Below, in pieces: positions 1,125 through 21,765 of a stretch of DNA of 26,490 bases (position 1 is the first letter of the stretch; every line of letters begins with the position of its first letter). Location: contig JALHMH010000032.1 in assembly GCA_022844165.1 (NCBI GenBank), forward strand, positions 28,064 to 54,553, given 5' to 3'. This stretch comes from Lysobacterales bacterium. GTDB taxonomy: Bacteria; Pseudomonadota; Gammaproteobacteria; Xanthomonadales; SZUA-5. Both the position numbers and the translations under genes were made by a program. The notes beneath the pieces were generated by a model. The model saw only the letters and a list, made by a program, of their open reading frames with translations. It made no database searches and was not told where the DNA came from.

Positions 1125-1868
1125 TCACGGCAGATCCGTAATCGACTTGTGGCCCAAGCGCGGTGGGGTGAGCGACGTGGCGGCCACCGTTTGACCAGGT
1201 CCGAGTGTGCGATCGAACATGGCATCCGATAGTTCGACGTTGAATTTGAGATCGACGATGGCGGCGCGGAAGGAACCGTCGGCGGCGCTGGTCCACGACG
1301 GGTGCAAAATGCCCCCGGCGCGCACCGTCCATGGGCCGCTCAATGTTCCGGCATTGTCGGCATGCGCCCCGAACGCGTAGGGTTCGCCGCGCGAATCGAG
1401 TTTGAACCACGCCAGCCTTTTGTCGTCTTCGACGACTTCCAAACGGCCGTCAACGGTGCGCACGCTCAGCGCGGCATCGCCTTCGGCAAGGCGGTGAATG
1501 GTGCGATACACATGCGCCGCATACCAGCGCTGATCTTCGGCCCAGGTCGCGTCCGAGATCGGTTCGACCTCACCGGTGCGGGTGATCCGCCAATGCGCGT
1601 CGCCGTTCGCCGCACGTGCGATCTTGAAGTCGTCGCCGAAAGTATCGATGCGATAACGCGGCGCGTCGAAATCGAGGTGAATCACTGCACGAACAACGTT
1701 CGGTTCGGCCAATCGATACTGCATCGCCTCATTGCGTGTATTTGTCGCCGCCGCCCACGCCTCGCGCCCGCCCACCGCGGCGAGCATACGTTCGAGATCG
1801 GCGCGGGCATCGGCACGAGCGTTCGAAGACGACAATAAACCGAATGCGATCAACCATGCGAATTTCAT
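1125..1868 (-). CDS. Secreted/periplasmic hypothetical protein
   Basis: 247-aa ORF with a signal peptide (MKFAWLIAFGLLSSSNARA), an 'MLAAVGGREAW' N-terminal helix and strongly GC3-biased codons. Confidence 0.75.
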   Translation of the reverse strand: MKFAWLIAFGLLSSSNARADARADLERMLAAVGGREAWAAATNTRNEAMQYRLAEPNVVRAVIHLDFDAPRYRIDTFGDDFKIARAANGDAHWRITRTGEVEPISDATWAEDQRWYAAHVYRTIHRLAEGDAALSVRTVDGRLEVVEDDKRLAWFKLDSRGEPYAFGAHADNAGTLSGPWTVRAGGILHPSWTSAADGSFRAAIVDLKFNVELSDAMFDRTLGPGQTVAATSLTPPRLGHKSITDLP

Positions 1869-2038
1869 TGGGTCAAGCCTGTAGGTTTGCGGATGGGGCG
1901 CGTTGCCACGATTAGCACCGCTGCGCTCCTCATCGTACCGAGACCAGGCCCTCGCGCTATCAAATTCTTGCTTGCGCGCGGTTTACATTCCGTCCGCGCG
2001 CCACTGCGGCGCCAGGGCGCGCCGAAGCGATGGCCACC

Positions 2039-2719
2039 TCAGGCGCGCTGCGCTCGCCGCACCTGATTGCCATAGCGCCGGTCCAGATACACACCTGCGG
2101 CGATTGCAACGGCGATCGGCGCGAACCACGGGAACAACTGCCAGACCGGGTCGAGCTGCCCAAAGACACCGCGCAGACCAACGCCCAGGAAAGCGACATG
2201 GGTGGCGATACCGTTACCCAACATCGCACCGTAGTGTTCAGTCAACCACCAGTTGCCGGCGCTGGGAATGTTGCGGCGCTTGCGCAGCATGCCGATGCCG
2301 GTGACCACTCCGATCCAACAAAAGCCCATCAGCAGTGGATTGTCGACCGCGACACCGATCGCGAATACGGTGAGTCCGGAGACGATGTTGAACCACGCGG
2401 TCCAGGCATAGCGCGTGTCGAAGAACGCACTGCGATCGCGCTTGCGTTGAATAGCCCGCCAACTGAGCCACACGGCGGTTCCTGTGATGACCACGAGATA
2501 GGCGAAAAACACGCCAAACACGGTGCGACCCTTGGCCAGAAACACCGCCGCAAGCGGCAGCGATGTGGCCAGGATGCCGAGCATCGCGAGCAGATAGATT
2601 TTGCCGACGGCTTTGTGCAGCGGGCTGCCTTTGCGCGCGATAGCGGCGGTCCAGAAGGTGGCCAGCGCGATCGCACCGGCGGCGATGTGCACGTAAACGA
2701 GGAGTTGATAGGCGCTCAT
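2039..2719 (-). CDS. Multi-pass membrane protein, DUF2306-like
   Basis: About 6 TM helices; motifs HIAAG, RKGSPLHKAVGKIY and WWLTEHYGAMLG...ATHVAF. It lies 4 nt downstream of the DUF2141 gene. Confidence 0.8.
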   Translation of the reverse strand: MSAYQLLVYVHIAAGAIALATFWTAAIARKGSPLHKAVGKIYLLAMLGILATSLPLAAVFLAKGRTVFGVFFAYLVVITGTAVWLSWRAIQRKRDRSAFFDTRYAWTAWFNIVSGLTVFAIGVAVDNPLLMGFCWIGVVTGIGMLRKRRNIPSAGNWWLTEHYGAMLGNGIATHVAFLGVGLRGVFGQLDPVWQLFPWFAPIAVAIAAGVYLDRRYGNQVRRAQRA

Positions 2720-2723
2720 GGCA

Positions 2724-3152
2724 TCACTTCAGATCGATTCGGATGGTACTGCCAGCCTCGCTGTGCTCCACCAGCGCATCGGCAAAGTCGGGTGGGCCAA
2801 AGGTGCCGCCACCGCGCGAGAAGCCGTAAGGTTCGCTGGGGATACCGAACATGCCGCGATCCAGTTTGCCGTTGCCGTTTTCATCCACGTACACGGCGAT
2901 CGCGTAGTTACCGGGCGCAAGATCGGCGATCTCGACCGCCTGCATGCGTTGCTCTGAAGCCATTGCACTCACACCGCGCTTGTTGGCGCCGACTGCCTTG
3001 CTCAACCAGTGTTCGGCGCGATCGAAAGCCGAGACGCGGACATCGCTGCCCGGTTTCAGCTTGCCGTGCACTTCAATGGTCATCGGTGCGGCGATTGCGC
3101 CGTGGGCAATCAGCGTTCCGAGCATGAGAGTTACCTTTCTGCGCTTGTCCAT
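2724..3152 (-). CDS. DUF2141 family secreted protein
   Basis: Signature PGNYAIAVYVDENGNGKLDRGMFGIPSEPYGFS. Start ATG at 3152 has an AGGAGG RBS upstream and is followed by a signal peptide. Confidence 0.88.
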   Translation of the reverse strand: MDKRRKVTLMLGTLIAHGAIAAPMTIEVHGKLKPGSDVRVSAFDRAEHWLSKAVGANKRGVSAMASEQRMQAVEIADLAPGNYAIAVYVDENGNGKLDRGMFGIPSEPYGFSRGGGTFGPPDFADALVEHSEAGSTIRIDLK

Positions 3153-3235
3153 CGATGCAGCCTCCTGTGTTTGGCAGTGAGGACAGGATCGCGAATGGCG
3201 CATTGCAGCCCAAGTGCGGATGCGCACCTCCGCTG

Positions 3236-3251
3236 GGTGAAAAAAGTCACC
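3236..3251. promoter_or_regulatory. Palindrome GGTGA-N6-TCACC (CRP/Clp-like spacing) in the divergent intergenic region
   Basis: The sequence ggtga aaaaag tcacc lies between the divergent DUF2141 and mbtH genes. Its function is not demonstrated. Confidence 0.3.
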
Positions 3252-3564
3252 TCATTGCGCCTGTTCAGATGCGCGGAGTAACGCTTGCGCGCGCAGTGCG
3301 CAAAGCCACAAGCGCTGGGCAGAGATGCTGCCGAGTCCGTTTTACCGTTGCTGTGTCCGGATGCGCCTGCCTGCTCTCAACCTTCCCGATCTTCCTGGCT
3401 CAATCACGAAACAGGCGGGCCAGGCCTTCTGCCGGATACTGCCGACACGAAGGCACCGGATTTTTGAGGCTGATATGCTCCAGCGGTGCGCAGCTTCGAG
3501 CGCCAGCAGCGGAGGCCTTGCTGAAGCGCTGCACAGCTATGACAGAGGATCGGGAGTAGAGCGA

Positions 3565-3756
3565 ATGCCGGAATTAGAGGACGACCGTTTGTACGTCGTA
3601 GTCGCCAACCACGAGGAGCAGTATTCGATCTGGCTCGCCGATCGCGACATGGCGCCGGGCTGGCTCGAAACCGGCTTTCGCGGTTCGCGGCAAGAGTGCC
3701 TGGACCACATCGCGAAGGTGTGGACAGACATGCGCCCACGCAGCAGCAGAGGATGA
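3565..3756 (+). CDS. mbtH: MbtH-like NRPS accessory protein (63 aa)
   Basis: NHEEQYSIW...PGW...CLDHIAKVWTDMRPRS matches the MbtH signature with its three Trp. ATG at 3565 has GGAG upstream; the ORF-track start at 3325 is overextended. Confidence 0.95.
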   Translation: MPELEDDRLYVVVANHEEQYSIWLADRDMAPGWLETGFRGSRQECLDHIAKVWTDMRPRSSRG

Positions 3757-4622
3757 CTGCCCGAAGGCGGCTGCGCGCGACCGAACTGGGTGCCTGCATT
3801 TCGGCGCGCAAGCACAGCGAAGTGTTTCGCGTCGGCGCAGATCGAGTGCTCAAACTGTTCCGCGGGCACGTGCGTGTCGACCTGGTCGAACGCGAGCTGC
3901 GAACGGCGATGCGCGTGCATGCCGCAGGTATCCCAACGCCGGCCGTCGATGCCGCAATCTTCGAAACCGATGGCGGACGTCACGGTCTGATGTTCGAATA
4001 CATTGAGGCGACGCCGCTCTCGAAGCTGTTTGAGCGCCATCCTCTGCATATCGCCCGATATGCTCGCCTGTTCGCCGACCTTCATCGGCGCGTTCACGAA
4101 TTCGAAGCCGTCGACGGACTACCGATGCAACGCATCGAGCTGCGCGACCGGATACTGCAAAGCGGCCGGATGAGCCTGGGGATTCGCCAACAGTTGCTGG
4201 CGCGACTTGACGCTTGCTCCGAGTCCCAGGCGCCACGTCTGTGCCATGGCAACTTTCACCCGAGCAACGTACTGGTCCATGGCGACCGTGCCTGGGTACT
4301 GAGTCTTGGAAACGCTTGCAATGGCGATCCGATCGCCGATGTCGCCAGAACGTCGACCATCCTGGCCTATGCGGATATCAAGTCCTCCGGCTTGGCTGGT
4401 TGGCTTTCCACACACTATAGCCGCTGGCGAAACCGTCTCTACCTCGCACGGTACCTGGACGGAGAACGAAAATTGCAATTACAATTCGATACGTGGTTGG
4501 TGATTCAGATGGCGCGTCGGCTGGAGGATGGTATCGCCAAGGCGGAAAGCGAAGCACTGGAAAAGAATATCCTGCGACGCCTCAGCGCTGGTTCGCAATC
4601 GTCGCCCTCCGGCGCTGCTTAG
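3753..4622 (+). CDS. APH/choline-kinase-fold phosphotransferase homologue, probably catalytically inactive
   Basis: ATGA overlap with the mbtH stop. VLKLF, AGIPTP, LCHGNFHPSNV and GDPIADVART are recognisable, but HGD is HGN and (I)IDW is VLSL. Confidence 0.85.
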   Translation: MTARRRLRATELGACISARKHSEVFRVGADRVLKLFRGHVRVDLVERELRTAMRVHAAGIPTPAVDAAIFETDGGRHGLMFEYIEATPLSKLFERHPLHIARYARLFADLHRRVHEFEAVDGLPMQRIELRDRILQSGRMSLGIRQQLLARLDACSESQAPRLCHGNFHPSNVLVHGDRAWVLSLGNACNGDPIADVARTSTILAYADIKSSGLAGWLSTHYSRWRNRLYLARYLDGERKLQLQFDTWLVIQMARRLEDGIAKAESEALEKNILRRLSAGSQSSPSGAA

Positions 4623-4680
4623 TTTCGTCGCCCTGCCTTTCGCCCGCAAACGACCACGGCCATTCCCATCAGGAGTACTC

Positions 4681-5448
4681 ATGACGGTCACGCAACCACA
4701 GCTCTGGTTCGCCGACGATGCGGCGCCGTTTCTGGGTCTTGAGCCTTTTTACTACGACACCAAAAATTTTCCGTGGGTGAAAAAGGTCGAAGCTGAGTGG
4801 CAGACCATCCGCGATGAACTGCTTGAGCATCTCGCCATCGACCAGGACAGCATGAAGCCGTACGTCAATCGCGAGATGACTTCGCGGCCAAACAGCTGGA
4901 AAACGCTGGGCTTGATGTTCTGGACCATACGTTCGGCAACGAATTGCGCGCTGTTTCCGCGCACCTGGGAAATACTCAAGGACATTCCCAACCTCACGGC
5001 AGTGTCGCTCAACGTGCTCGAACCGCATACGACGATCAAACCGCATGTCGGCAACACCAACGCCATCATCCGTTGCCATCTTGGGCTGGTTGTCCCCGAC
5101 CAGGCACCACGCTGTGCGTTTCGTGTTGGCTCGGAGACGCGTAGCTGGGATGAGGGCAAACTCTTGATGTTCTGCGATGCGCATCAGCACACCGCGTGGA
5201 ACAATACTGACCAAAAGCGCTACATCCTGGTACTCGACATCATGAGACCCGAGTTCGTGCGGCTCAAGAATTCGACCTCGAGTCGCGTCCTGGCATCCAT
5301 CTATCAAGAGGCAGCCTACCAACGGTTTGCGTGGCTAAAGCGGTATTTCGGGGGGCGCCGCGGTCAGGCGTTCACGTTGTCGTTGTTGCGCGCGTTTTAT
5401 CGACTTACGCTCTGGAGCCACCGCTCGTTTTCGGCAGCCAGCGGCTAA
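4681..5448 (+). CDS. Aspartyl/asparaginyl beta-hydroxylase (AspH/LpxO family) Fe(II)/2-oxoglutarate dioxygenase
   Basis: WQTIRDE, IKPHVG...RCHLGL, W.EGK...FCDAHQHTAWN and RYILVLD. ATG at 4681 follows an AGGAG RBS. Confidence 0.9.
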   Translation: MTVTQPQLWFADDAAPFLGLEPFYYDTKNFPWVKKVEAEWQTIRDELLEHLAIDQDSMKPYVNREMTSRPNSWKTLGLMFWTIRSATNCALFPRTWEILKDIPNLTAVSLNVLEPHTTIKPHVGNTNAIIRCHLGLVVPDQAPRCAFRVGSETRSWDEGKLLMFCDAHQHTAWNNTDQKRYILVLDIMRPEFVRLKNSTSSRVLASIYQEAAYQRFAWLKRYFGGRRGQAFTLSLLRAFYRLTLWSHRSFSAASG

Positions 5449-5604
5449 GGCCAGAACATCCATGGGGTGGCCGGTCATCCGCTTGAGTGATTTACGACAG
5501 GTTCGCGGCCGCGGTCAGCTCGAGGACAGTGGAAGTTGGCGGTCTCCGCGGCACGCCGCGCGCCGCCTCGAACGCCCCGCGAACACGCCATCGAGGAGAT
5601 CGAA

Positions 5605-6834
5605 ATGACCGCATCCAACGAACCTGGCCTCGATTCGCACCGACTCGACGAAATCGACCTGATCGATCCGACACTATTCCATAGTGACCGGCATTTCGAA
5701 CTATTCGCTCGACTCCGCAACGAAGATCCGGTGCACCTGCAACGCAATCACCCACGCGTTGGTTCGTTTTGGAATGTCACCCGCTATGAGGACATCCTGG
5801 CGGTCGATCTCGACCACGCCGGTTTTCCATCGCGCGACACTTTCCTGATAGATGATATCGATCCGAACTTTACGCTGCCCATGTTCCTGGCGATGGAGCC
5901 ACCGAAACACACGGCTTATCGCGACTCTGTTCGATCGTTCTTTTCGCCGGAAACGCTCGCCCATTTGGAACCGGTGATCCGCGCGCGGGCCAGTGCGATT
6001 CTGGATTCACTACCGCTGGATTGTGAGATCGATTGGGTCGAACGTGTCGCGATAGAGCTCACCTCGCAAGTGCTTGCAGTGATCTTCGATTTCCCGATGG
6101 AGCGGCGCCGCCAACTCATCGACTGGTCGGACCTGGCGACGCTGGATCCACACGGCCGCGCGTTGAGCTGGCAGGAGCGCCAGTCGGGGTTGATGGATTG
6201 CCTGCGGTCGTTTACGGCACTCAAGTCCGCTCGTAGTGCGGGGCATCATGGCAACGATCTTTTGTCAACGCTGACGCATGGTCCTGCGGCGCGTTTCCTC
6301 AAACCGAGCGAGTTTCTCGGCAATATTCTGATGCTGATCGTCGCTGGCAACGACACCACACGCAATTCCATCACCGGCGGCGTCATTGCGCTGAACCGCT
6401 ATCCCGAACAATATGCGCGGCTGCGTGCCGATCCCGCGCTCCTGCCAGGGGCGGTATCGGAGATTTTTCGCTGGCAAACGCCCATCGCCTACATGCGCCG
6501 CGTTGCTGCTATCGACGCCCAGTTATGCGGAAAGTCGATCCGTGCGGGAGACAAAGTCGTGATTTGGTACGCATCAGGCAATCAGGACGAACGCGTTTTC
6601 GAGCAACCCGAGGCCTTTCGGCTCGATCGCAAGAATTCGCGCAAGTCGCTTTCGTTCGGATTTGGAATTCATCGCTGCTTAGGTGTACGGCTTGCCGACA
6701 TGCAACTTCGCATCTTGTGGGAAGAGATCCTGCGACGCTTTATCGTTGAACAGAGCGGTTCCGCAGTGCCGGTAGCTTCCATCTTCGTGAAGGGCTATTC
6801 GTCTTTGCCTGTGGTGCTGCGCAAGCTGTCTTAG
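5605..6834 (+). CDS. Cytochrome P450, CYP153-like
   Basis: I-helix EFLGNILMLIVAGNDTTRNS, ExxR (SEIFRWQTP) and heme loop FGFGIHRCLG..LA.MQLRILWEE with Cys at 6676-6678. ATG at 5605 follows GAGGAG. Confidence 0.93.
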   Translation: MTASNEPGLDSHRLDEIDLIDPTLFHSDRHFELFARLRNEDPVHLQRNHPRVGSFWNVTRYEDILAVDLDHAGFPSRDTFLIDDIDPNFTLPMFLAMEPPKHTAYRDSVRSFFSPETLAHLEPVIRARASAILDSLPLDCEIDWVERVAIELTSQVLAVIFDFPMERRRQLIDWSDLATLDPHGRALSWQERQSGLMDCLRSFTALKSARSAGHHGNDLLSTLTHGPAARFLKPSEFLGNILMLIVAGNDTTRNSITGGVIALNRYPEQYARLRADPALLPGAVSEIFRWQTPIAYMRRVAAIDAQLCGKSIRAGDKVVIWYASGNQDERVFEQPEAFRLDRKNSRKSLSFGFGIHRCLGVRLADMQLRILWEEILRRFIVEQSGSAVPVASIFVKGYSSLPVVLRKLS

Positions 6835-6879: not shown

Positions 6880-9800
6880 TCATCGCTGTTCGGCCGCGAG
6901 GTCGACCGCTTCGCCATCGTTGATTGGCTTTGTTGGGTCATGACCTGCAAGGGCAAGAACTCGGCGACAGACATCGTTGAGCAGCCGTGCGGCGATGCAC
7001 GGGTCAATCAGGCACGCATCGAACTTGATCTCGAGCCGCAACCGTTCGCCCGGCCAGAAAAAGAAGTTCAGCGGAATCGTGCTTTGCGCATGGGTGCGCA
7101 GTCCTGAGACGATCGGGTGAGGGACCTCGGCGTAGTTCTCGACGATCACAGCGCAATCGAAGAGTATCCCGCCGCCATTGGGCGCACTGCCAATGATCTC
7201 CTCGGAACTCACGTGCAGATGCGGTTCTCGCGCAATCTGCGCGGTCAGGACGGCATGCAATGCGGCTCTGGCGTCGACTCCTTCGGCCGCTTCGACCACC
7301 AAAGGCACAAGGTTGATGAACAGACCTGCGGTGTGCGCCAGTTCCGGCAGGTCGACCGGTCGCACCCAAACGAATTGCCCAAAGGCCACGCGCTCGCAAC
7401 CGCGCTCTGCGGCAAGTGCGTGTCCGAATGCCGCTACGTAAAGCGTGCTCGCGGGTACGCCGAGCGAACGAGCGCCAAAAAGTACACGGTTGGTCTCACT
7501 GGTCGAAAGGTCGTGCTCTATCGAACGGATTTCGCCGCCTCGCGAGCCAGGCGTCGTCAGCAGCCAGCTTCTGTCTTTGGACAACTGGGCCAGCTGTGCG
7601 CACCAGAACTCAATGCTGGGTTGGCGCGGTTGTGCCTGTATCCACGCCGCGTAAGAGCGATACGACCGTGCGGGCGCCAGGATGCGATCGGATCCGGTGC
7701 GCTCGGCCTCGTAGAGCTCGAACGCCTCGCCAAGCAGCATGACATCCGACCAGCCATCGAGCAGCGCATGATGGTATGTCCACACGAACTGATGGGAGAC
7801 CGCGTCGAGGCGGATCAAGTGCCACCGAAAGGGTGGTTGCGGGAGCAGCGCGAACTCTTCGCGGCGATCAGCTTGCAGATACTGCTCCAATAGCCCGGTC
7901 CTCTCGCGGGCAGGTCGATCGACCCAGCTCATCTCGCGCCATGTCAGTGTGGCCCTTTTGTTGCAAACCAGCATCGGTCGATCTTCGAGCCTGAAGGAAA
8001 AATAGCTGCGCAGCGCTTCGTGCCGTTCGGCAACGCGAGACCAGGCGCGCTTGAATGCCGCGACGTCGAGGTCGTGCAGCACGCCCTCAACCTGTTCGAT
8101 ACAAAAACCACTCCGCGGATAACGCAGCGACTGCGCTAACATCTCCAGTTGCATTGGCGTCGGGCCGCAAATGAACTCGATGTCGCGCCATGATGGATGC
8201 GCGTGGAACTTCTGCAAATCCGCTCGGCCCAGTCTTGCTGCGGTGATAAACGCTGCACGTTGCGTGGTGTCGTCGCCAGGCGATCGATTTTCCCGGCAAG
8301 CTGCAAGTGCCATGCGAAGGCTCGGCGCCCCCAGCAGTTCTGCGAGTTCCAGTAGAAGTCCCGCTCGGCGCAGTGCCGACAGGAACTTCAGAGCCAGCAC
8401 GGAGTCGCCGCCCACGTCGTAGAAGCTGGCGTCCAGCGATGGCGCGAATCCGAACGCCGAAACCAGCGCCGCTACGCGGGGATCCGATTCGTCTGTCGTT
8501 GTCTGACCGTCGCGATCCGGGACGAACGTTGGCAGCGCGCGCGTATCGATCTTCGCGTTCGCGGTCAGCGGAAACGCATCGAGTCGATAGAAATGCGATG
8601 GCACCATGTAACTCGGCAGCTGCGCCGACAGCGCCTCTACCAACGCAGAAGTCGCCTTATCGCCGCCCCTGCCTACAAATCGGCCGCGCTCGCTCACGTT
8701 GTCGTCGATAAGAAAAGCGACCAGGGCGTCGGCGGCACCAGCGCGGACGCGCTCGACATAAGCACCTCTAATGCCGGGTTGGCGCAGCAGGTGGTGCTCA
8801 ATCTCACCCAGCTCGATGCGAAAGCCGTGCAACTTGACTTGGCGATCGATGCGACCGACGACGACGATAGCGCCGTCTTGATGACGGTATGCGCGATCGC
8901 CCGTCTTGAACATACGGGCACCTGGCGTGGCGCTGAACGGATCAGGCAGAAAGCGCGCCGCCGTCGCCAACGGCGCACCGTAGTACCCGCGTGCGACCAG
9001 CAATCCGCCGATGTAGAGTTCGCCGATCGCATGGTCGCCCAATGGCGCGAGTGCTTCGTCCAGCACATACAGCGCATTGCCAGCGAGCGGATGCCCGACC
9101 GGCACCAGGTCCGTCTCCAGGGCACCGGCATCTGGCAGTTTCCAGCCGCAGTTGGTGATTGTAGTTTCTGTCAGACCATAGGCGTTGACGCAAGGCACCT
9201 GGCGGGCATAGTACTGCTGCCACACGCGCGCCTTCGCTGGCGGGCAGGGTTCGCCGCCGATGATCACCAGCCGCAACGACGGCGGCAAAGGCAGACGCGC
9301 GACCTCAAGATGCTCGAGCCATGCCGACCAAAGCGCGGTCGGCAGATTGAGCACCGTCAAAGATTCGCGCCGGAGACAATCGTCGATCGCGGCCATGCCC
9401 TGCGTTTGCAGGTCAGGCGCCACGATGACGCAAGCGCCGGCACAAAACGTCGGCAACAGCTCTTCGATCGAGACGTCAAAGCTCGGGGCGCAAATATGCA
9501 ATACGCGATCGCTGGCCGCGAGCTGGTATCGCTCGATCGCAGCGCGTAGATGCGCGTCGAGGTTGTCGCGGCCAACAAGCACCGGCTTGCTACTGCCCGT
9601 CGTACCGGACGTCTGGATGATATAGGCGCCGTCAGAACCGTATGCCCATTCGCCATCCGGCGCAATTGCGTCGATATCGGGCAGACCAGACCAGTGCAAC
9701 ACGGGCACAGTTGTCGCAAGCGGCGGCTCGGCGATCGAAACAACGCACTGCAGCCCGGATTGCCTGACGTATCCCAGCAACCGCTGAGCGGGCAGACAAG

Positions 9801-10065
9801 CATTGAGCGGCACATAAACGGCGCCGATTCGAAGGATCGCCAGCATCGCGACCACTGCATTCGATGAACGATTCGCATACACGCCGACGTGACTGCCGGA
9901 AGTCACGCCGGCTGCCCTCAGATCGGCTGCGCGCAACGCTGTTGCCGCATCCAGTTGGCGGTAACTGAGCACTCGGCTGCCATCGAGCAGCGCCGGAGCT
10001 GCAGCGCGCTGATTGGCATGCCAGGTCAGTCGCTCGGAAAGCAGATCCGTTGCCTTAGGCTTCAT
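6880..10065 (-). CDS. Stand-alone NRPS with A-T-C architecture (terminal condensation domain)
   Basis: A domain: LSYRQL, QTSGTTG, SFDVS, NAYGLTE, FKTGD, GRIDRQVKLHGFRIELGEIE, PLTANAKID. T domain: FYDVGGDSV, Ser at 8401-8403. C domain: HHALLDG at 7753-7773. ATG at 10065 is the preferred start; the ORF is open to 10209. Confidence 0.92.
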   Translation of the reverse strand: MKPKATDLLSERLTWHANQRAAAPALLDGSRVLSYRQLDAATALRAADLRAAGVTSGSHVGVYANRSSNAVVAMLAILRIGAVYVPLNACLPAQRLLGYVRQSGLQCVVSIAEPPLATTVPVLHWSGLPDIDAIAPDGEWAYGSDGAYIIQTSGTTGSSKPVLVGRDNLDAHLRAAIERYQLAASDRVLHICAPSFDVSIEELLPTFCAGACVIVAPDLQTQGMAAIDDCLRRESLTVLNLPTALWSAWLEHLEVARLPLPPSLRLVIIGGEPCPPAKARVWQQYYARQVPCVNAYGLTETTITNCGWKLPDAGALETDLVPVGHPLAGNALYVLDEALAPLGDHAIGELYIGGLLVARGYYGAPLATAARFLPDPFSATPGARMFKTGDRAYRHQDGAIVVVGRIDRQVKLHGFRIELGEIEHHLLRQPGIRGAYVERVRAGAADALVAFLIDDNVSERGRFVGRGGDKATSALVEALSAQLPSYMVPSHFYRLDAFPLTANAKIDTRALPTFVPDRDGQTTTDESDPRVAALVSAFGFAPSLDASFYDVGGDSVLALKFLSALRRAGLLLELAELLGAPSLRMALAACRENRSPGDDTTQRAAFITAARLGRADLQKFHAHPSWRDIEFICGPTPMQLEMLAQSLRYPRSGFCIEQVEGVLHDLDVAAFKRAWSRVAERHEALRSYFSFRLEDRPMLVCNKRATLTWREMSWVDRPARERTGLLEQYLQADRREEFALLPQPPFRWHLIRLDAVSHQFVWTYHHALLDGWSDVMLLGEAFELYEAERTGSDRILAPARSYRSYAAWIQAQPRQPSIEFWCAQLAQLSKDRSWLLTTPGSRGGEIRSIEHDLSTSETNRVLFGARSLGVPASTLYVAAFGHALAAERGCERVAFGQFVWVRPVDLPELAHTAGLFINLVPLVVEAAEGVDARAALHAVLTAQIAREPHLHVSSEEIIGSAPNGGGILFDCAVIVENYAEVPHPIVSGLRTHAQSTIPLNFFFWPGERLRLEIKFDACLIDPCIAARLLNDVCRRVLALAGHDPTKPINDGEAVDLAAEQR

Positions 10066-10646: not shown

Positions 10647-13600
10647 GTGCAAAAGAGCAATCTGATTGACGTCGTCCGTGCTCGCTTGGCGCAAACACCC
10701 GAAAGAGTCGCGTTCACATTTCTTGATTACCACCCGCGCACGGGGCAGCGAATCTCTACTTCGTGGACGATGTACGAACTGGATGCGCGGGCGCGTTCGG
10801 TCGCTGCGGAACTCGATCGGCTTGGCGCGCGTGGGGAACGCGCCCTCCTGCTGTATCGCGCCGGACTCGATTTTGTCGCCGGATTTCTAGGCTGCCTGTA
10901 TGCCGGCGTCGTGGCGGTACCAGCGTCTGTGCCCAAGCAGGGCTGGGGCGCAGACCGCGTAAGAACGATCGCAGCGCACTCGGGCGCTCGCTTTGCACTG
11001 TCGACCGCAAGCTCGTTGCGCGCCACCAGTCAGTTTCTCACCGGGCGCGACGATCTGCAATGGTTGCTGACCGACGAAATCGCTCCTGCTGCAAGAGATA
11101 CCGCCTTCATACCAGCAGCGATGCAACGCGAAGACCTGGCGCTTTTGCAGTACAGCTCAGGTTCGACCGGCAACCCGAAGGCGGTGATGATCACGCACGA
11201 CAATCTGCTCAGCCAAGCCTTGCTGGTGCGCGATGCTTTTGCGCTGACCGAAGACGACTGTTCCGTGTCCTGGCTTCCCAATTACCACGACATGGGTTTG
11301 ATCACGTCCGTTGTCTTGCCGCTGTTTACCGGGTTCCACTGCGCATTGATGGCACCGGAAGCTTTCGTGATGAAGCCTTCCCGCTGGCTACAGGAACTGT
11401 CGGAGCGTCGGGTACGGTGCTGCGTCGCACCTGACTTCGCGTACGAACTCTGTACGCGCAGGATTAGCGACGATGAGCTGCGCGCGCTTGATCTCACAGC
11501 GATCGAGCACGCTGTCAACGGCGCAGAACCGGTGCGCGCCCGCACGTTGGCTCGGTTCACGGAGCGCTTCGAACCCTGCGGTTTCGATGGCGATGCATTT
11601 AAGCCCGTCTATGGTCTGGCCGAAGCTACGCTGATGGTCTCAGGCCGGAGCAGCAAGCTGGTCATCGGCTCGTTTGAACGCGAACCGCAGGACAGGCGCG
11701 AGCGCTCCGCAACCGATGCCGCCGATTCAACCGCGATCCGGCTTGTGTCCTGCGGCCGGGCATATGGCGACAACGACATTCGCATTGTGGACCCGGAATC
11801 ACGCCGCGAACTGCCAGCGCTTCACACGGGCGAGATCTGGGTCCGTGGCGGGAGCGTTGGTCGCGGCTATTGGGGAGACGTCGGGGCCAGCAACGACAAC
11901 TTCAGCGCGATGCTCGCCGATAGCGACGGCACGCGGTTCATGCGCACCGGCGACCTTGGCTTCTTCCAGGATGGAGAGCTCTTCATTCGCGGACGTTTGA
12001 AGGACCTGATTCTGATTCGCGGCAGCAATCATCATGCGCCAGACATCGAACAGACGGTAGAAGCTTGTCATCCAGCACTAGCCGTTTCGAGCGGCGCGGC
12101 ATTTTCTGTCGATATCGACGACGAAGAACGTTTGATCATCGTGCATGAACTCGAACGCGACGGCCGCGGCATTCCCGAAGCGCAGCTCGCCGAAATCGCT
12201 ACGACGATCCGTCGCTGCGTCACAGAACAACACCAAATCGCTCCCCATGCCGTTCTGTTGCTCGGCCGCGGCTTACCCAAGACCACCAGCGGCAAAGTCC
12301 GCCGCGACGAGTGCCGCAGCCGCTTTCTCGCCGGGCAACTGAAGACCGCCTATGCCTGGACAGCCTCGCAGTCCGATGATGCGCCGACAAAGACCGGCGC
12401 CGCAGAGGCGGGCTCCGAGCGGCAACAGCAGAAGACCACCCAGTGCGAGCAGTGGCTGATCGATCGGATCGCGCGAGCAAGCGGCACCCGCAGCGACCGG
12501 ATTGGCATTTTGACGCCCGTCTCTGAATTCGATCTCAGCCCCGCCGCGATGATCGAACTGGTCCGCGACTTCGAACGTGAGTTCGGCGTGTTGGTAACGA
12601 TGTCTGTGTTTCTTGAGCATGAAAACATCCAACAGCTGGCCAACCACCTTGGCAAGGCCATCGCAGCGGCCGATGAGGCCGAACCCGGCACCGGCGGTCG
12701 GCTGACAGCGGAGGCGTTGGCAAGCTCCATGGGCAGCGAAGCGCGCTCGTCGGCCGCAGATGCGATCGCCATTGTCGGCATGGCCTGCCGCCTCCCTGCG
12801 GCGAATGGGACGAAGGCCTTTTGGGACAACCTATGCCGTGGCGTCGACGCGGTAGGAGAGGTCCCGCCGGAGCGTTGGGACAACGAAGCACTGTATGACG
12901 AAAACCCGCTCGCACAGGGGAAGATGAATACGCGCCGCGGCGGATTCCTCACCGACGTGGAACTCTTCGATCGGAAGTTCTTCGGCATTCCGGTGCGCGA
13001 GGCAGTACGCATGGATCCGGCGCATCGGCTGCTATTGGAACTGAGCTGGGAAACCCTGGAAGATGCCGGTATCCCCGCTGGTAGCGTTAGCGGACAGCGC
13101 GTTGGCGTGTACATCGGTATTTCCGGAAGCGACTACGCGCAGCTGCAATTCGGCGACGAAATGCTGGCCGATGCCTATGCTGGCGTCGGTTGTGCGCTCA
13201 CGAACTCCGCGAGCCGCATCTCGCACTTCCTCAACCTGCGCGGACCGGCGCTGGCCGTCGATACGGCTTGTTCGTCCTCCCTCAGCGCGCTGCACCTGGC
13301 GGCCAGCGCCGTCCGCTCCGGCGAATGCCAGCTGGCGCTCGCGGGCGGCGTGAACATTATCTTATCGCCTACCGTGACGATGTCGCTCAGTAAGGCCGGC
13401 ATGATGGCACCTGACGGTCGCTGCAAGACCTTCGACAAGCGCGCCGATGGATATGTGCGATCCGAAGGCGCCGGCCTGGTGCTGCTCAAGCCACTCGCCA
13501 GAGCGATCGCCGACGGCGACCGGATCTACGCTGTCATTCGTGGTTCGGCCAGCAATCAGGACGGAAAGAGCAGCGGTATTTCTGCTCCCAACGGCGAAGC

Positions 13601-16600
13601 GCAACAGCGTGTGGTGTTGGCCGCCTGCGAGAACGCGGGCATTTTGCCCGGCAACCTCGACTACGTAGAAGCTCATGGTACCGGTACCGCATTAGGCGAT
13701 CCGATCGAGGTGAACGCCCTGGGAGAAGTGCTCAAGATCGGTGCTCAGCCAGGGAAGACCTATGCGATCGGTTCGGTAAAAACCAACATTGGGCATACCG
13801 AGTCGGCCGCCGGCATCGCCAGCATTATCAAGGCCAGCCTGATCTTGCATCACCGTCAGTTGCCACCCAGTCTGAACTTCGAAGATCCCAACCCGTTGAT
13901 CCCGTTCGAGCGCTACAACATTAGCGTGCAGAAGACCTTGCAACCTCTGATCGGTTTCGGCGGGCCTGCATTGGTCGGTGTCAATAGCTTCGGTATCGGC
14001 GGCACCAACGTGCATTTCGTGCTGGAGGAGCCCGGCGCGATGGCGACTTCCCGCCCGATGCAGATGAACGAGGAGCGACCGTACGTGCTCACGATCAGCG
14101 CTCGCAGCGAGAATTCGTTGAAGCTCAATACGGCCGCCCTGCTCGACTACTTGTCGCAAGAGGGCACGCCGTCGCTTGGCGATATCGAGTACACGTTGGG
14201 GGCGCGTCGCTCGCATCTCGAACATCGTCTTGCGGTGATCGGCAGCGACCGCGCCGAACTGATAACGGCACTGAAAGCTCAAGTCGAAATCAATTATCAC
14301 GCCGACATCCTTCAGGCACACGCACAACCGGGAACCGATGGCCGGCCGAAGCTCGCATTCGTGTTTTCCGGCCAGGGGCCGCAGTGGTGGGCAATGGGCC
14401 GAAAGCTGTTCTCCTGCGAGCCGGTTTTCCGCGACTGCATCGAGCAGTGCGATGGCTTCCTCAAGCCGATGACCGGCTGGTCGCTCATCGAACTCCTGCA
14501 TGCCGACGAAGCGCACTCGACACTCCGCGAAACGGCCTATGCGCAGCCCGCGCTGTTCGCGCTGCATTGCGGCCTCGCGGCTTTGCTGCGTTCGCTTGGG
14601 ATCGAACCCGATGCAGTCGTGGGCCATAGCCTTGGCGAAATCGCCGCTGCGCACATCGCTGGCTGCCTCTCGCTCGAAGATGGCTGCCGACTGGTTGCGG
14701 TCCGTGCCGAACTGATGCAGAAGGCCACCGGTGAAGGACTCATGGCCAGCATCGAAATGTCGCGCGAGGATGTTGAGCGCGAGCTCGCCGGCGTCGGCGA
14801 CGCACTGACCATCGCCGCCACCAATACCCACGGCACTACGGTTGTCTCGGGTGAGCGACAGGCGCTTGAGGCATTGCTGGCGAGCCTCAAGCAGCGCGGG
14901 GTTGTTGCTGTCCAGCTACCGGTCAACTACGCGTTCCATAGCGCGCAGATGGAACCGATCAAGCGAGAACTCGTGCTTCGACTTGCCGGCCTTTCAGCCA
15001 AACCGGCGCGCATTCCATTCATGTCTACGGTAACGGCCGATTGGGCCGGTAGCGACCACTTGCTGGGACCCGAATACTGGGGCGCTAATGTGCGCCAGGA
15101 AGTGCGTTTCGGCGATGCGATCACCGCGCTCGGTCGCCAGGGTGTGCGTGTCTACGTCGAGATCGGGCCGACGCCCGTATTGTTCGGTGCGATCGTCCGC
15201 GGACTCAAACTCGCAGGTATCGGTGGCGATGCGGTTACTACGCTGGAACGGGACGCCGACGACCTGCGCATGTTGGCGCGATGCATCGGCATGCTGCAGA
15301 CGCTCCGCTGTTCTCCAGACTGGACCGCCTGGCGGCCCGCCGCCCGCTTCGTGAGCGGTTTGCCACATTATCGATGGGATCGCCAACGATACTGGATGGA
15401 CGCCGCACACCACGAGGCGCGCCGACGCTTGAGCGCACATCCGCTTGTTTCGCTGCGCATGCCTGTCGCTCAACCCACCTGGCAGTCCCATCTGGACATC
15501 AATGTCGATCCGTATCTCACCGCACTGCGCGTAAGAGGCCGGCCGCGCATTGCCTGCGGGGTGCATGTGGAACTGGCCCTTGAGGCACTGTTTGGTGGCA
15601 GCGACCAGACCAGTCTTCGCGAGCTGTTCGAACTTCAGTTCGACGAAGTTCCAGACGCACTCGATCCCACGCAATTGCCGACGTTGCAAACCACGATTCA
15701 TGGCACCAGGGCCGGTGCGTCCTCCGTTACCATTTCGGCGCAGACGGACGACAGCCAGGGTAAAGCGGCGGCCTGGTTTCCGGTGATGACCTGCCGCACT
15801 GCCGCGGCCTCTTCTACCAGTACGCCCAGGCAACTCGACATCGTATCGCTGCGCGCTCGCTTCACCAATCAGCTAAGTGCAACCGAGGTGTATCGAAGAC
15901 TCGCCGAAGTCGGTGCCGAATATGCGCCGCCGCGCCAGGTCGTACAAGAAATCTGGCGCGACGAGGAAGCGGTGTTGATCGGACTTCGCACTGCGCAGAT
16001 GTTCAAAGCCGATATCGGCAAGTATCAACTACATCCGCTGGTGTTCGAAGCGATCGAACAGGCAGCACGCCTGACGTCCGGCAGCGTGGCGGCGCAACAC
16101 GAGCTGGCACACGTCGCACGCGTGCGGCTGATCGGCGACTGCGCGCGCGCAACGCTTTTATATGCGCGTCTGCGGGTCGTCGGAGCGCCCTCCGATCCCG
16201 CACGCGAGGGCGAATCGACACACACCGACGTCTGGGTGCTGGCAGACGACGGCAGCGTGCTCGCCATTGTCGAGGGAATCCGGTTCCGCGCGCAGCGATC
16301 CGAAGAGGATTTCAGTATTCCGACGGATATCGACCACTGGCGCTACCGCGTGCATTGGCAAGAGCGGGCACTCGAAGCCACCGACCTCGCCGCGACCCCG
16401 GCAAACGGAGCCTGGTTGATCGTCGCCGACCGACGAGGTGTTGGCGAGCAGCTTTGTCGCTGGCTTCGCCAACACGGGCAGGATTACGTCATCGTCGAAC
16501 CGCGCAGTGCGTTTTCGATCCTCGGCACCGATCACTATGAGATTGACGCAAATTCCACGGCCGACCGCGTTCGCGTTTTGCGCGAGGCCTTCGCAGAACG

Positions 16601-19268: not shown

Positions 19269-20954
19269 ATGCAGCTCTTCAAGTTCCTCCTTAAGCACTC
19301 GAGTGCGCTACTGTTGCTGTCCATGATCGTTGGCATCGGCGCTGGCGCCGGAAGCGCCTACATCCTGGCTCTGGTCAACGACAGCCTCGCGAGCATCGGT
19401 CAGGCTGAAACCCAGTCGCAGGTAGCCATGTTGTTCTGCGGCCTGGTGCTGGTGGTCGTTGGCGCCGAGTTGGTGTCCCGGTTGTTGCTGCTCCGAGTGT
19501 CTGCGCGCGCAGTCCGCGATATGCGCATGAATTTGTGCGACCAGATCTTGAAATCGCCTCTGCGTCGTGTCGAAAGCAGCGGTTCAAGCGGCTTGATGGC
19601 GGCACTGACCGAAGATGTGCAACGCATTGCGGAGGCGCTGATCGCGCTCCCGACGCAATGCGTCAACGTAGCGATCGCGGTCGCATGCTTCGCTTATTTG
19701 TTCTACCTGTCGTGGCCGCTGGCGCTCGGCTTTGTCGGAATTTACCTGGTCGGAATCGTGGCGCATGAATTGATGTCGCACGCAGCGCGACCGTCGATGA
19801 AGAAGGCGCGTGCAAAGTGGGATGCGCTAATTGGCCTGTACACGGGCATCATCAATGGCAATAAGGAACTCAAGCTCCAACGTCAGCGTCGGCGCTCGCT
19901 GCGTAACGACGAACTGGTACCGACTGCTGACGAGATGATGCGCCTGGCATGGCGCTCGAATTCGATCGTTGCTGTAGGTGCGGCGCAAACGCAGCTGGTG
20001 TTTTTTGCATTGCTCGGACTCGTGCTCTTCGTCGCACCGCGCTACGGCGTATTCGAACCCAGCGTGATCAGCGGCTTTGTGTTGATGGCTTTGTTCATGA
20101 GCGGTCCGATCGCCTCGGCGGTCGGCACGTCGCCCAAGTTCCACGTCGCCGACGTTTCGCTCAAAACGATCCAGTCGCTTGGGCTGTCGCTCTCAGCCGA
20201 CGCCGTCAGCGATCTGCGCGATGCCGGCGAGACGAACGACGATGCGCCTTTCGCTGGTATCGAGTTGCGCGATGTCGTTTATCGCTACGTTACCGAAGAT
20301 CAGGGCGATCGCGCCTTTGTGCTGGGTCCAATCAACCTCAAGATCCTGCCTGGCGAACTCACGTTCATCGTCGGCGGCAACGGCAGTGGCAAGAGCAGCC
20401 TGATGCGCATACTAACCGGGCTGTATACGCCGACTTCCGGCACCCTGGCGCTCAACGACCGGCTCATCGACGACGAAAATCGGGATGACTACCGCCAGAA
20501 CTTTGCCGTGGTGTTCTCGGACTATCACCTTTTCAAGAGTCTGGGCGGCGTACTTGAACCAGGGACGTTGGCAATCGCAGACGAGTACTTACGGCAGCTG
20601 GAACTGAGCGAAAAGGTGCGCATCGAAAACGGCGAACTTTCGACAGTGGACCTGTCGCAAGGCCAGCGCAAGCGACTCGCATTACTGACCGCTTTCCTGG
20701 AGAACCGTAGCGTCTTCATGTTCGACGAATGGGCAGCGGATCAGGATCCGTCATTCAAGAGAGTGTTCTACCACCGAATCCTGCCGCAGCTTAAGGCACT
20801 GGGCCGCACCGTCATCGTGGTCAGTCACGACGACCAGTACTTCGAGTCGGCCGATCGCATTGTGCGCTTCGCGGACGGCCGTATTGTCGAGGATCGTTAT
20901 CTGCACGGGCAGACGAATGCCGGTACGCCAGAGCAAACGCTCGCCATGGCCTGA
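19269..20954 (+). CDS. Cyclic peptide export ABC transporter (SyrD/PvdE/YojI family)
   Basis: N-terminal TM domain, GNKELKL, Walker A GGNGSGKS, signature LSQGQRKRLAL, FDEWAADQDP and VSHDD. Confidence 0.95.
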   Translation: MQLFKFLLKHSSALLLLSMIVGIGAGAGSAYILALVNDSLASIGQAETQSQVAMLFCGLVLVVVGAELVSRLLLLRVSARAVRDMRMNLCDQILKSPLRRVESSGSSGLMAALTEDVQRIAEALIALPTQCVNVAIAVACFAYLFYLSWPLALGFVGIYLVGIVAHELMSHAARPSMKKARAKWDALIGLYTGIINGNKELKLQRQRRRSLRNDELVPTADEMMRLAWRSNSIVAVGAAQTQLVFFALLGLVLFVAPRYGVFEPSVISGFVLMALFMSGPIASAVGTSPKFHVADVSLKTIQSLGLSLSADAVSDLRDAGETNDDAPFAGIELRDVVYRYVTEDQGDRAFVLGPINLKILPGELTFIVGGNGSGKSSLMRILTGLYTPTSGTLALNDRLIDDENRDDYRQNFAVVFSDYHLFKSLGGVLEPGTLAIADEYLRQLELSEKVRIENGELSTVDLSQGQRKRLALLTAFLENRSVFMFDEWAADQDPSFKRVFYHRILPQLKALGRTVIVVSHDDQYFESADRIVRFADGRIVEDRYLHGQTNAGTPEQTLAMA

Positions 20955-21030
20955 CCAGACCACTGCCATGCATGTGCTCGACGCGAAGCTTCGCTCCCCA
21001 GAAATCCCGGCCCGCAAGGAACATACTCGC

Positions 21031-21765
21031 GTGTCGGCGATCAGCGTGATCAGGCGCGTGGCGTTGCCGAAACTTCGCTTGTTTTGCTTCCCGTACGCTG
21101 GCGCCGGTCCATCGGTCTACCGCGACTGGGCAACTGCGCTGCCAGAACACGTCGAACTGGCAGGTGTTGTATATCCCGGTCGCGAGTCGAGAGCGAACGA
21201 AAGACCGCTGACTAATCTCGCCGCCCTGGTTGGCACCCTGGTCGACGAAATCGGCGGACTCCTCGATCTGCCATTTGCCTTCTTTGGGCATAGCATGGGC
21301 GCTTATGTGGCCTTCGAGGCCGCGCGATCTCTCAGCATGCGGGGCTTGCGTCCCGAGCATGTCTTCGTTTCGGCGGCGGGCGCACCGCACCTGCCCGAAC
21401 CGAACCCAGTGCATGCGTTGGATCCTCGCGCTTTCTTCGAAGCGCTGCTGAGATTGAACGGATTCCCGGCGGAAGTGCTGCGCAATGCCGAACTCGTCCG
21501 TTATGCGCTACCGATCTTGCGCGCCGACTTAAAGGCCTGCGAAACGCATCGCTTCGATTTTGATCGACCGAGCCTGTTTCCTATCACTGCTTATGGCGGG
21601 AGAAGCGATCCCCGCGTTTCGCATGAACGGATCGCGGCTTGGCGCGCGACGGCGGGTGTGGAGTTCGCTCTACGCATGTTCGACGGCGATCATTTCTTCT
21701 TTCGCCCACAGCAAGATGCGGTGCTGTCGGACATGATGAATCGGCTCTCGGAGCCCCGTCGATGA
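21031..21765 (+). CDS. Type II thioesterase (editing)
   Basis: RLFCFPYAGAG, YPGRE, FFGHSMG, LRADL and GDHFF. Start is GTG at 21031 (AAGGA upstream) or ATG at 20968. Confidence 0.92.
   Translation: MSAISVIRRVALPKLRLFCFPYAGAGPSVYRDWATALPEHVELAGVVYPGRESRANERPLTNLAALVGTLVDEIGGLLDLPFAFFGHSMGAYVAFEAARSLSMRGLRPEHVFVSAAGAPHLPEPNPVHALDPRAFFEALLRLNGFPAEVLRNAELVRYALPILRADLKACETHRFDFDRPSLFPITAYGGRSDPRVSHERIAAWRATAGVEFALRMFDGDHFFFRPQQDAVLSDMMNRLSEPRR

Follow-up and report, generated by a model that had tools for sequence, protein, structure and literature searches.

A stand-alone A-T-C NRPS protein with a DCL-type condensation domain beside oxygenase genes: a candidate trans-acting donor module

The window analysed here, a stretch of 26,490 nucleotides of contig JALHMH010000032.1 from a Lysobacterales bacterium (genome G000), carries a putative lipopeptide gene cluster in which a minus-strand NRPS gene lies between oxygenase genes and a FAAL-containing polyketide synthase gene. 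The same gene was found in three further genomes (G024, G048 and G074), of which G024 offers the closest context. The genes and domains are as follows.

3696-4622, plus strand: APH-family phosphotransferase gene at the left cluster edge (Pfam APH; 30% identical to its G024 counterpart)
4528-5448, plus strand: oxygenase gene of the Asp/Asn beta-hydroxylase family (Pfam PF05118; 53% identical to the G024 orthologue)
5536-6834, plus strand: cytochrome P450 gene, CYP153 family, convergent with the A-T-C gene (Pfam p450; CYP153A7 match)
6880-10065, minus strand: stand-alone A-T-C NRPS gene (ORF list, translation, Pfam)
7018-8160, minus strand: condensation (C) domain of the A-T-C protein, DCL-type clade, with HHALLDGWS at 7747-7782 (Pfam, tree, context-trained profiles, PDB matches)
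8161-8310, minus strand: T-to-C linker (with FITAARLGRADLQKF), conserved in the family, with no significant likeness to E-to-DCL junctions
8311-8439, minus strand: carrier (T) domain, with GGDS at 8401-8412 (Pfam PP-binding, motif coordinates)
8551-10026, minus strand: adenylation (A) domain, residues 62-553 of the 1109-residue frame (Pfam AMP-binding, a sub-threshold AMP-binding_C at 469-553, TIGR01733)
10647-19202, plus strand: FAAL-ACP-KS-AT-DH-ER-KR-ACP polyketide synthase gene, divergent from the A-T-C gene (Pfam)
19269-20954, plus strand: ABC transporter gene (Pfam ABC_membrane, ABC_tran)
20860-21765, plus strand: free-standing thioesterase gene (Pfam Thioesterase)
21639-26489, plus strand: main NRPS gene, C-A-T-C, cut by the contig end, carrier motif GGHS (Pfam, tree, profiles, motif)

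The open frame of the A-T-C gene runs for 1109 codons from a GTG at 10209 to 6880, and the ATG at 10065 gives a product of 1061 residues that is identical to entry P0003 of the protein collection, so that the limits 6880-10065 given in an earlier note on this DNA are correct. The Pfam matches on the 1109-residue frame are AMP-binding (residues 62-410, E 1.4e-62), PP-binding (591-633, E 1.8e-06) and Condensation (684-1064, E 2.7e-40), after which the frame stops; the protein is intact and is the stand-alone A-T-C enzyme that the note had described. All the motifs quoted there were recovered, namely GGDS, LRRAGL (8356-8373), FCIEQ (8092-8106) and RHEALRS (8005-8025), together with FITAARLGRADLQKF (8206-8250), DIEFICGPTPMQLEML (8137-8184) and WTYHHALLDGWS (7747-7782), as was the contrast between GGDS in this carrier and GGHS in the sole carrier visible in the main NRPS. 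As a module the protein is additional to the visible collinear line and lies outside it. Both C domains of the main NRPS are of the LCL/starter type by tree and profiles, and no remainder of that gene was found in the assembly.

Seven further database proteins and three further genomes carry the A-T-C gene, which is therefore real and conserved and not a chance open reading frame. The family comprises eight protein-database entries, one of them a 660-residue fragment, and four genomes, all from one order; the non-fragment relatives of P0003 are A-T-C proteins of 1046-1094 residues. Pattern scans of species genomes (39 loci) and of JGI metagenome contigs (80 loci) gave no family member, the C domains at these loci reaching at most 175 bits where those of family members exceed 229 bits. 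A class-level sample, with 399 other genomes scored, likewise contained no member, and a renewed search of G048's family (41 genomes) yielded nothing new. We regard the A-T-C family as conserved, but rare and uncharacterised.

The A domain scores 337.7 bits against TIGR01733, and alignment gives it the specificity code DVENIGAITK, the ten positions being picked by GrsA numbering. The code D[VI]EN[IV]G[AG]ITK is common to nine of ten family members and to both types of gene context, the exception being the G024 member. A literature search for the code and for guessed variants of it returned no relevant paper; an acidic side chain at position 239 of the code would hint at a basic one in the substrate. 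The carrier reads GGDS(V/I/L) in seven of the eight family members typed by profile, the exception being GGNSI in G024, and GGDSI in the members of G048 and G074. The earlier note had taken such a carrier as a sign of a following epimerase, and this stood in part: GGDSI occurs in 218 of 219 reference carriers that precede an E domain, but it is also present in 34 of 40 carriers fused directly to a DCL-type C domain. On the difference between E-type and LCL-type carrier profiles the family, at +0.3 to +5.6 bits, leans only marginally to the E type, whereas true E-type test carriers reach at least +12.8 bits and LCL-type carriers at most -1.5 bits.

For the C domain, the DCL-like character proposed from the motifs was borne out by a tree, by context-trained profiles and by matches to solved structures. 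In a tree of 110 domains, which held no labelled dual E/C references, the family formed a 100* clade on a stem of 0.6 inside the 99* DCL-type clade, not away from it, and outside the 97* LCL clade, which takes in the six remaining C domains of the genome. The context-trained profiles gave 288.5 bits for DCL, 133.0 for LCL and 39.5 for E, and assigned all nine family domains profiled to the DCL type; held-out controls were assigned correctly in 40/40 DCL, 35/36 LCL and 40/40 E cases. The top 50 full-length C-domain matches outside the family comprised 26 that follow an E domain, 22 at a protein N terminus, one after a T domain and one other. Ten PDB sequences matched at 100-145 bits, namely PvdL (four), McyB, SrfA-C, two surfactin synthetase chains, BacC and TycB, whereas the LCL-type chain 2jgp gave 19 bits. 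Clade and profile class are thus those of the DCL-type domains described by Rausch et al. 2007 (PMC1894796), and the HHxxxDGWS and FENY-type motifs are shared too. The family is nonetheless a divergent version, scoring 259-357 bits where canonical DCL domains score about 520, with the consensus C1 motif YPLSPMQ.GML altered to ICGPTPMQLEML.

This divergence, seen also against the Pfam Condensation profile (141.9 bits, compared with 280-375 for the six other domains of the genome), led us to weigh whether the domain condenses at all. It might instead act as an epimerase or dehydratase on its own carrier, or as a scaffold that recruits an oxygenase, in the manner of the glycopeptide-synthetase X domain or a siderophore-synthetase interface domain. 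The oxygenase genes that adjoin the gene in all four contexts are consistent with such a role, as is the link between GGDSI carriers and trans-acting beta-hydroxylases made in published work (PMC8161544). Published X domains, however, have lost the second His of the catalytic motif (PMC1894796), whereas HHALLDGWS is retained in all ten A-T-C family members, including those of G048 and G074, and GGDS and HHALLDGWSD are invariant across six aligned family proteins. The match also spans positions 8-410 of the 456 in the Pfam profile, and from motif and full-length fold we predict a catalytically competent domain. As for epimerization, the E profile reaches just 28-45 bits across the family. Dual E/C domains resemble the present one in directly following a GGDS-type carrier and in lying on the DCL/dual side of the tree, but the N-terminal HH[I/L]xxxxGD that defines them (PMC1894796) does not occur in the translation, the family having MLAQSLRYPRSG there and no HH between C1 and C2. 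A non-condensing function is on balance improbable.

The earlier note had also proposed that the protein descends from an A-T-E-C module by excision of the epimerase, and this part of its account found no support. No E domain precedes the C domain, which follows the carrier after 81-87 residues (carrier Ser to motif C1), close to the median of 78 at other junctions between GGDS-type carriers and DCL-type C domains. Profiles of E-to-DCL junctions gave -1.4 to 5.8 bits on the T-to-C linkers of all eight family members compared, whereas held-out true junctions had median scores of 47.7 and 34.6 bits, and between 8 and 492 of 800 shuffled linkers scored equally high, so that the linkers behave like shuffled sequence and show no detectable E remnant. 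Loss of an epimerase does occur among comparator proteins, since C domains after E and after GGDS-type carriers intermingle in the tree, even as sister pairs within one protein, and since one comparator (P0264) retains an obvious E remnant of 40 bits. The family may therefore have descended from an A-T-E-C unit with no surviving E remnant, although excision from this particular protein cannot be shown from sequence. For genome mining the result is a caution: a DCL-type C domain behind a GGDS carrier is not, taken alone, evidence of epimerase loss.

The reading that goes with epimerase loss, in which the leftover DCL-type C domain attaches an amino acid to a hydroxyl or amine of the lipopeptide as a branch, deserves consideration apart from the linker. 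Besides the C domain's class and the comparator losses, the nearest A domains agree with it, 13 of the top 20 matches lying in A-T-E modules compared with 205 of 619 overall. So does the surplus of C domains: every visible main-line module in G000 and G024 owns a C domain, which leaves that of the A-T-C protein over. On the other side stand the linkers, with no detectable E remnant, and the marginal carrier, the frequency of GGDS carriers fused to DCL-type C domains with no E between them, and the best PDB match, PvdL, whose C domain we take to use a fatty-acyl donor and hence to need no epimerase. The acceptor of such a branch is itself a supposition, the clusters of G000 and G024 both being incomplete. 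We consider the full account, epimerase loss and branch together, rather unlikely, while noting that C domains that form esters are known (PMC8949500).

What the branch might be attached to depends on the neighbouring oxygenases, which in G000 and G024 are the P450 and the PF05118 protein and in G048 and G074 a CmlA-like protein and a TauD protein. The P450/PF05118/APH cassette is syntenic in G024, the P450 orthologue there being 52% identical and in the same position. As a default we had supposed the P450 to be a carrier-dependent amino-acid beta-hydroxylase, and this was dropped once the enzyme proved CYP153-like: it scores 414.3 bits against the CYP153A7 chain 3rwl and 131 bits against the chain 4l0e/4pwv/4pxh, which we take to be a carrier-dependent amino-acid hydroxylase. 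The same comparison speaks against a C domain that recruits an oxygenase to its own carrier. For the PF05118 protein the nearest named NCBIfam models are lipid 2-hydroxylases, OlsC at 144.9 bits and LpxO at 83.2 bits, both below the cut-offs. Separately, Sol models of the solanimycin cluster gave matches below their cut-offs to the P450 and to the A-T region; the two clusters are unlike. One example of an acceptor would be a fatty-tail hydroxyl introduced by the OlsC/LpxO-like hydroxylase or by the CYP153-like P450, and a branch onto a hydroxyl from the adjacent P450 is possible. In its fullest form, in which the oxygenases serve to make a hydroxyl on the tail built by the FAAL-containing polyketide synthase and the DCL-derived C domain esterifies its own amino acid there, the proposal makes the family a dedicated installer and is likewise unlikely; if true, the lipopeptide would carry its decoration on the distal end of the lipid, as a branch beyond what collinearity predicts.

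The contexts in G048 and G074 suggest a different partner. Here the A-T-C gene neighbours genes for proteins of 1481 and 1489 residues with the layout C0-A-T-E, whose N-terminal domain is C-like (Atlas score 0.98) and has no His motif; the N-terminal 428 residues of the 1481-residue protein of G048 are a degenerate C domain. An open reading frame of the present window, 2030-3127, was considered as kin of this degenerate domain and found to be unrelated. The E domain of the C0-A-T-E proteins is a true one, at 293 and 322 bits with the context-trained profiles, and the next NRPS gene opens with a canonical DCL-type C domain (520 and 527 bits). This canonical domain might be read as leaving the C domain of the A-T-C protein free for a non-condensing role, but the true E domain already accounts for it, and the assembled G000 and G024 contain no other DCL-type C domain. 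In these two genomes no partner of the C0-A-T-E type was seen, both clusters being incomplete: G000 has no E domain among its seven condensation-family hits, and G024, in 290 contigs, has four such hits with neither an E domain nor a module that lacks a C domain. An ordinary collinear partner beginning with A-T, which the earlier note had set against its branch proposal, is thus not visible here, whereas in G048 and G074 the succession of a dead C domain and an A-T pair may amount to one.

A precedent for such an arrangement is AmbB from the AMB pathway of Pseudomonas aeruginosa, a proven stand-alone A-T-C protein that performs its condensation on AmbE in trans (PMC8968710 and PMC4357302). There the protein's own carrier is the donor, as we propose for the A-T-C family, the partner AmbE has no working upstream C domain, a feature that the C0-A-T-E layout parallels, and the gene adjoins oxygenase genes. 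The systems differ in that AmbE ends in C*-T2-TE where the candidate partner in G048 and G074 closes with a true E domain, and in that the C domain described here is DCL-type, with no partner visible in this window. The 35 PDB sequences that matched with E values up to 1 include no AmbB-named chain, so the likeness is one of architecture, not of kinship or orthology.

The C domain described here ends its protein and has no acceptor carrier in cis, so that its nucleophile may be soluble, a side chain or a lipid, as with the free or terminal C domains that act on untethered acceptors, namely VibH, SgcC5, AngM, Fum14, the terminal C domain of glidonin synthesis (PMC10587159) and the ester-forming C domain of vioprolide. 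It differs from the free C domains in being fused to its own A-T pair. Chain 4znm was the only PDB match of the free-C kind, and a weak one at 24.8 bits.

We take 4znm to be SgcC5. Considering these comparisons together with the architecture, our preferred reading, to which we assign a probability of about 0.55, is that the A-T-C protein is a trans-acting donor module that hands its loaded residue to a partner outside the main line. The A domain would activate one particular amino acid, the divergent GGDS-type carrier would hold it, possibly during modification by a neighbouring oxygenase, and the intact DCL-clade C domain would take the aminoacyl group off its own carrier and pass it to a nucleophile of a different protein or molecule. 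We infer the direction of transfer from the T-to-C spacing, which is typical of donor junctions; the acceptor, too, we infer. In G048 and G074 the simplest candidate is the adjacent Asp-loading module with its dead C domain, and the A-T-C protein, lying beside it, may therefore form a split initiation module with it in the style of AmbB with AmbE. In the present cluster the acceptor, which is out of view because the contig breaks off within the main NRPS gene, would lie beyond that end or be a side-chain or lipid hydroxyl or amine, giving a branch. Certain features count against the donor reading: the main NRPS owns a starter-type C domain and no acceptor is seen before the contig end; the C0-A-T-E protein of G048 and G074 could itself initiate, which would make the A-T-C protein an extra; the G024 hits include no module that lacks a C domain, and the family member there departs from the shared code; and a DCL-type donor site with no epimerase to supply a D-residue is unexplained.

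Stand-alone modules that act in trans violate the collinearity rule by which peptides are predicted from genes. Because one substrate code is kept and oxygenase genes are always adjacent, the A-T-C family marks clusters whose products standard tools will mispredict. If its C domain complements a dead C domain in trans, or esterifies a lipid hydroxyl, the protein would be a compact part for the engineering of branched lipopeptides.

The open frame of the A-T-C gene (adenylation, carrier and condensation domains) runs on the minus strand from 10209 to 6880 (1109 codons in the ORF list), and the ATG at 10065 gives a protein of 1061 residues, identical to entry P0003 of a protein collection. Pfam places three domains in this frame:

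residues 62-410, AMP-binding (A)
residues 591-633, PP-binding (T)
residues 684-1064, Condensation (C), after which the frame ends in the translation

Pfam and the translation thus bear out the earlier note in that the protein terminates after its C domain; all of the strings it quoted were found where it had placed them, and the carrier of the main NRPS is indeed GGHS, with only one carrier visible there. Searches of two protein collections returned seven further entries whose C domains score 303-707 bits, and the best non-family score was at most 179 bits. Six are full-length relatives of 1046-1094 residues (P0004, P0006-P0009 and P0219), and P0005 is a 660-residue fragment without an A domain. 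The motifs GGDS and HHALLDGWSD are invariant across six aligned family proteins. When whole genomes were searched, three of 398 others in a sample of the order carried the family (G024, G048 and G074); a class-wide sample gave none among the 399 others scored, one further genome being unscored. Scanning contigs from genomes and metagenomes by pattern gave no additional members. The gene is a real, intact stand-alone A-T-C and its family is rare but conserved.

The C domain had been called DCL-like, the type normally found downstream of epimerase (E) domains, and pairwise scores, a tree and context-trained profiles all indicate that this class call is sound. Across the 266 proteins retrieved by these searches, each C-like domain was labelled by the domain that precedes it. 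By pairwise score, the best 50 of 438 full-length non-family C matches comprise 26 after an E domain, 22 at a protein N terminus, one after a carrier and one other; C domains after a GGHS carrier scored 20-48 bits (n = 10) and those after a GGDS carrier 30-157 bits (n = 48). The tree covers 110 domains, with eight E domains as its root (IQ-TREE quick search, LG+G4). The window genome's six other C domains all fall within a clade of LCL domains, the other main class (support 97). The A-T-C domain lies outside it, in a clade of 73 rows (support 99) that takes in 28 after-E, 22 after-GGDS-carrier and 14 N-terminal domains, and within which the family forms a group (support 100) on a stem of 0.6. 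The context-trained profiles, correct for 40/40, 35/36 and 40/40 held-out controls, typed all nine family C domains tested as DCL (DCL 259-357 bits, LCL 104-142, E 28-45). Among solved structures, ten distinct sequences matched at 100-145 bits (PvdL (four), McyB, two surfactin synthetase chains, SrfA-C, BacC and TycB), several of which we take to be DCL catalysts, and chain 2jgp, presumably LCL-type, scored 19 bits; these matches agree with the DCL-type class. Dual E/C domains differ, their hallmark being an N-terminal HH[I/L]xxxxGD motif (excerpt of PMC1894796) that is absent from the family C domain in translation and alignment.

The earlier note went further and derived the protein from an A-T-E-C ancestor, with E excised and the C domain repurposed to add a branch. 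Its background statements hold in our reference set, where 218 of 219 carriers before E read GGDSI (67 of 80 before LCL read GGHSL) and TPSDFPLAGLSQAQLDRL is the consensus of the E-to-DCL junction. In the family itself no trace of an excision is detectable. On held-out E-to-DCL junctions the median profile score was 47.7 bits over 45 residues and 34.6 bits over 29 residues; the eight family T-C linkers scored -1.4 to 5.8 bits, which does not raise them above LCL linkers or shuffled sequence, 8 to 492 of 800 shuffles matching or exceeding them. Family carriers lean only marginally to the E-type profile (+0.3 to +5.6 bits), true E-type carriers scoring at least +12.8. A GGDSI carrier with a DCL-type C domain is also common without E: of carriers joined directly to such a domain, 34/40 are GGDSI and 39/40 type as E-like, and after-E and after-T C domains are interleaved in the tree. 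GGDSI carriers have been tied to stand-alone beta-hydroxylases (excerpt of PMC8161544; cf. PMC11472818). The A domains closest to that of A-T-C are followed by T-E in 13 of 20 cases, as against 205 of 619 overall, which favours descent from an A-T-E unit. E deletions do occur: the multimodular NRPS P0264 keeps a plain remnant of what is apparently one within its chain. Near residue 3389 a carrier precedes an apparent first E motif that runs directly into TPEDFPLARL, the junction at the end of E, and on into a DCL-type C domain; the junction profile gives the remnant 40 bits. An old loss of E is possible, traceless and not required by the architecture; excision is unproven on these comparisons, and the full account of excision followed by branching appears unlikely.

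The gene lies among the following features (Pfam):

3696-4622, APH-family kinase, left of the A-T-C gene
4528-5448, PF05118 oxygenase, left of the A-T-C gene
5536-6834, P450, convergent with the A-T-C gene
10647-19202, FAAL-ACP-KS-AT-DH-ER-KR-ACP synthase, to the right and divergent
then, in order, an ABC transporter, a free thioesterase (20860-21765) and the main NRPS, C-A-T-C (from 21639, plus strand)

The P450 is CYP153-like (414 bits against chain 3rwl, CYP153A7), and none of the ORFs examined was recognised as its ferredoxin or reductase partner. For the PF05118 oxygenase the nearest models are the lipid 2-hydroxylases OlsC and LpxO, both scoring under the cut-off. The listed ORFs overlap by about 127 bases at thioesterase/NRPS (21639-21765) and about 95 at kinase/hydroxylase (4528-4622), and the real start codons probably lie further downstream than the longest ORFs imply. 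Neither Pfam nor NCBIfam recognises anything in ORFs 3-587, 1125-1868 (minus strand), 2030-3127 and 3155-3559, and the contig upstream carries unrelated genes (an RTX/CHRD protein, a histidine kinase and AceK), so the left cluster edge is probably near 3700.

To the right, the window reaches the end of its contig, C32, where the main NRPS runs off after C-A-T-C (21639-26489). No continuation was found in the 59-contig assembly, despite a marker-gene completeness of 99.97%, nor any E domain, protein beginning A-T or further NRPS fragment; the remainder is therefore unassembled, and the genome does not reveal how large the product is. It holds only seven condensation-family matches, the A-T-C member being by far the weakest (141.9 bits versus 280-375). 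A second NRPS locus, on contig C3 (90756-104632), has two genes of 2183 and 2443 residues, each C-A-T-C-A-T; its first C domain is sister (support 100) to the first of the window's main NRPS.

In G024, of the same taxonomic family and another genus, the cassette recurs as an NRPS end (A-T-TE), APH, methyltransferase, PF05118, P450 and convergent A-T-C, with identities to the window of 52% (P450), 53% (hydroxylase) and 30% (kinase). The window's 3696-6834 segment is syntenic with it apart from the inserted methyltransferase. G024 has only four condensation-family matches and no E domain, though its assembly is in 290 contigs. G048 and G074, from another family of the order, share a different cluster: P450, TauD, a 1481/1489-residue protein, a CmlA-like diiron hydroxylase, the family A-T-C, a second TauD, C-A-T (its C domain a canonical DCL, 520 and 527 bits), KS-AT-KR-ACP and two separate C-A-T proteins. 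In G048 the genes for these last two have PanD between them, and the line closes with a four-module NRPS with TE; in G074 Pfam recognises nothing in the ORF that takes the place of PanD, and the sequence analysed ends short of any terminal NRPS. The 1481/1489-residue protein (C-like, A, T, E) is located at:

L143:7532-11977 in G048
L146:4939-9408, minus strand, in G074

At its C terminus is a true E domain (293 and 322 bits). Its N-terminal ~430 residues are barely detected by Pfam (E 0.081) and are grouped with condensation domains by a protein atlas (score 0.98, 30/30 matches); they lack the His motif in both genomes and so constitute a dead C domain (C0). The A-domain codes in G048 are DLTKVGHIGK (C0-A-T-E) and DLTKVGHVGK (next module), which we take to be aspartate codes. 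TauD and CmlA-like hydroxylases flank the protein. Given another A domain of this kind and, in G048, the PanD gene, the product looks like a hybrid peptide-polyketide with hydroxy-aspartate.

Oxygenase genes directly adjoin the family gene in all four contexts. Nine of ten family members, from both context types, have the ten-residue code D[VI]EN[IV]G[AG]ITK, the G024 member having DALFLGNVVK (positions picked by GrsA numbering). Among other NRPSs the nearest codes resemble DVELIGAITK, and a literature search found no paper with the A-T-C code.

The distance from the carrier serine to the first C motif is 81-87 residues in the family (median 78 at ordinary donor junctions), suggesting that the protein's own carrier would be the donor to its own C domain. 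The intact His motif speaks for genuine transfer chemistry rather than a mere scaffold, and a non-condensing role for this domain seems improbable. We favour, with a probability of roughly 0.55, the reading that the A-T-C protein is a donor module, one that would require an outside acceptor. In the window and G024, both incomplete clusters, each main-line module that can be seen carries a C domain of its own, which favours a side-chain or lipid acceptor; a candidate is a hydroxyl installed by the CYP153-like P450. The related SolI has been proposed to oxidise an acyl chain while it is bound to a carrier (excerpt of PMC10204066). In G048 and G074 the A-T-C protein may give the first residue to C0-A-T-E, its live C domain standing in for the dead C0, which would be the neatest bookkeeping there; equally, C0-A-T-E may start the line by itself, leaving A-T-C as a tailoring module. 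Supply of C0-A-T-E in trans by the A-T-C donor would follow the logic proven for AmbB/AmbE, where the C domain of AmbB serves a partner without a working upstream one (excerpts of PMC8968710 and PMC4357302). The A-T-C protein belongs to an already known class of trans-acting NRPS modules.
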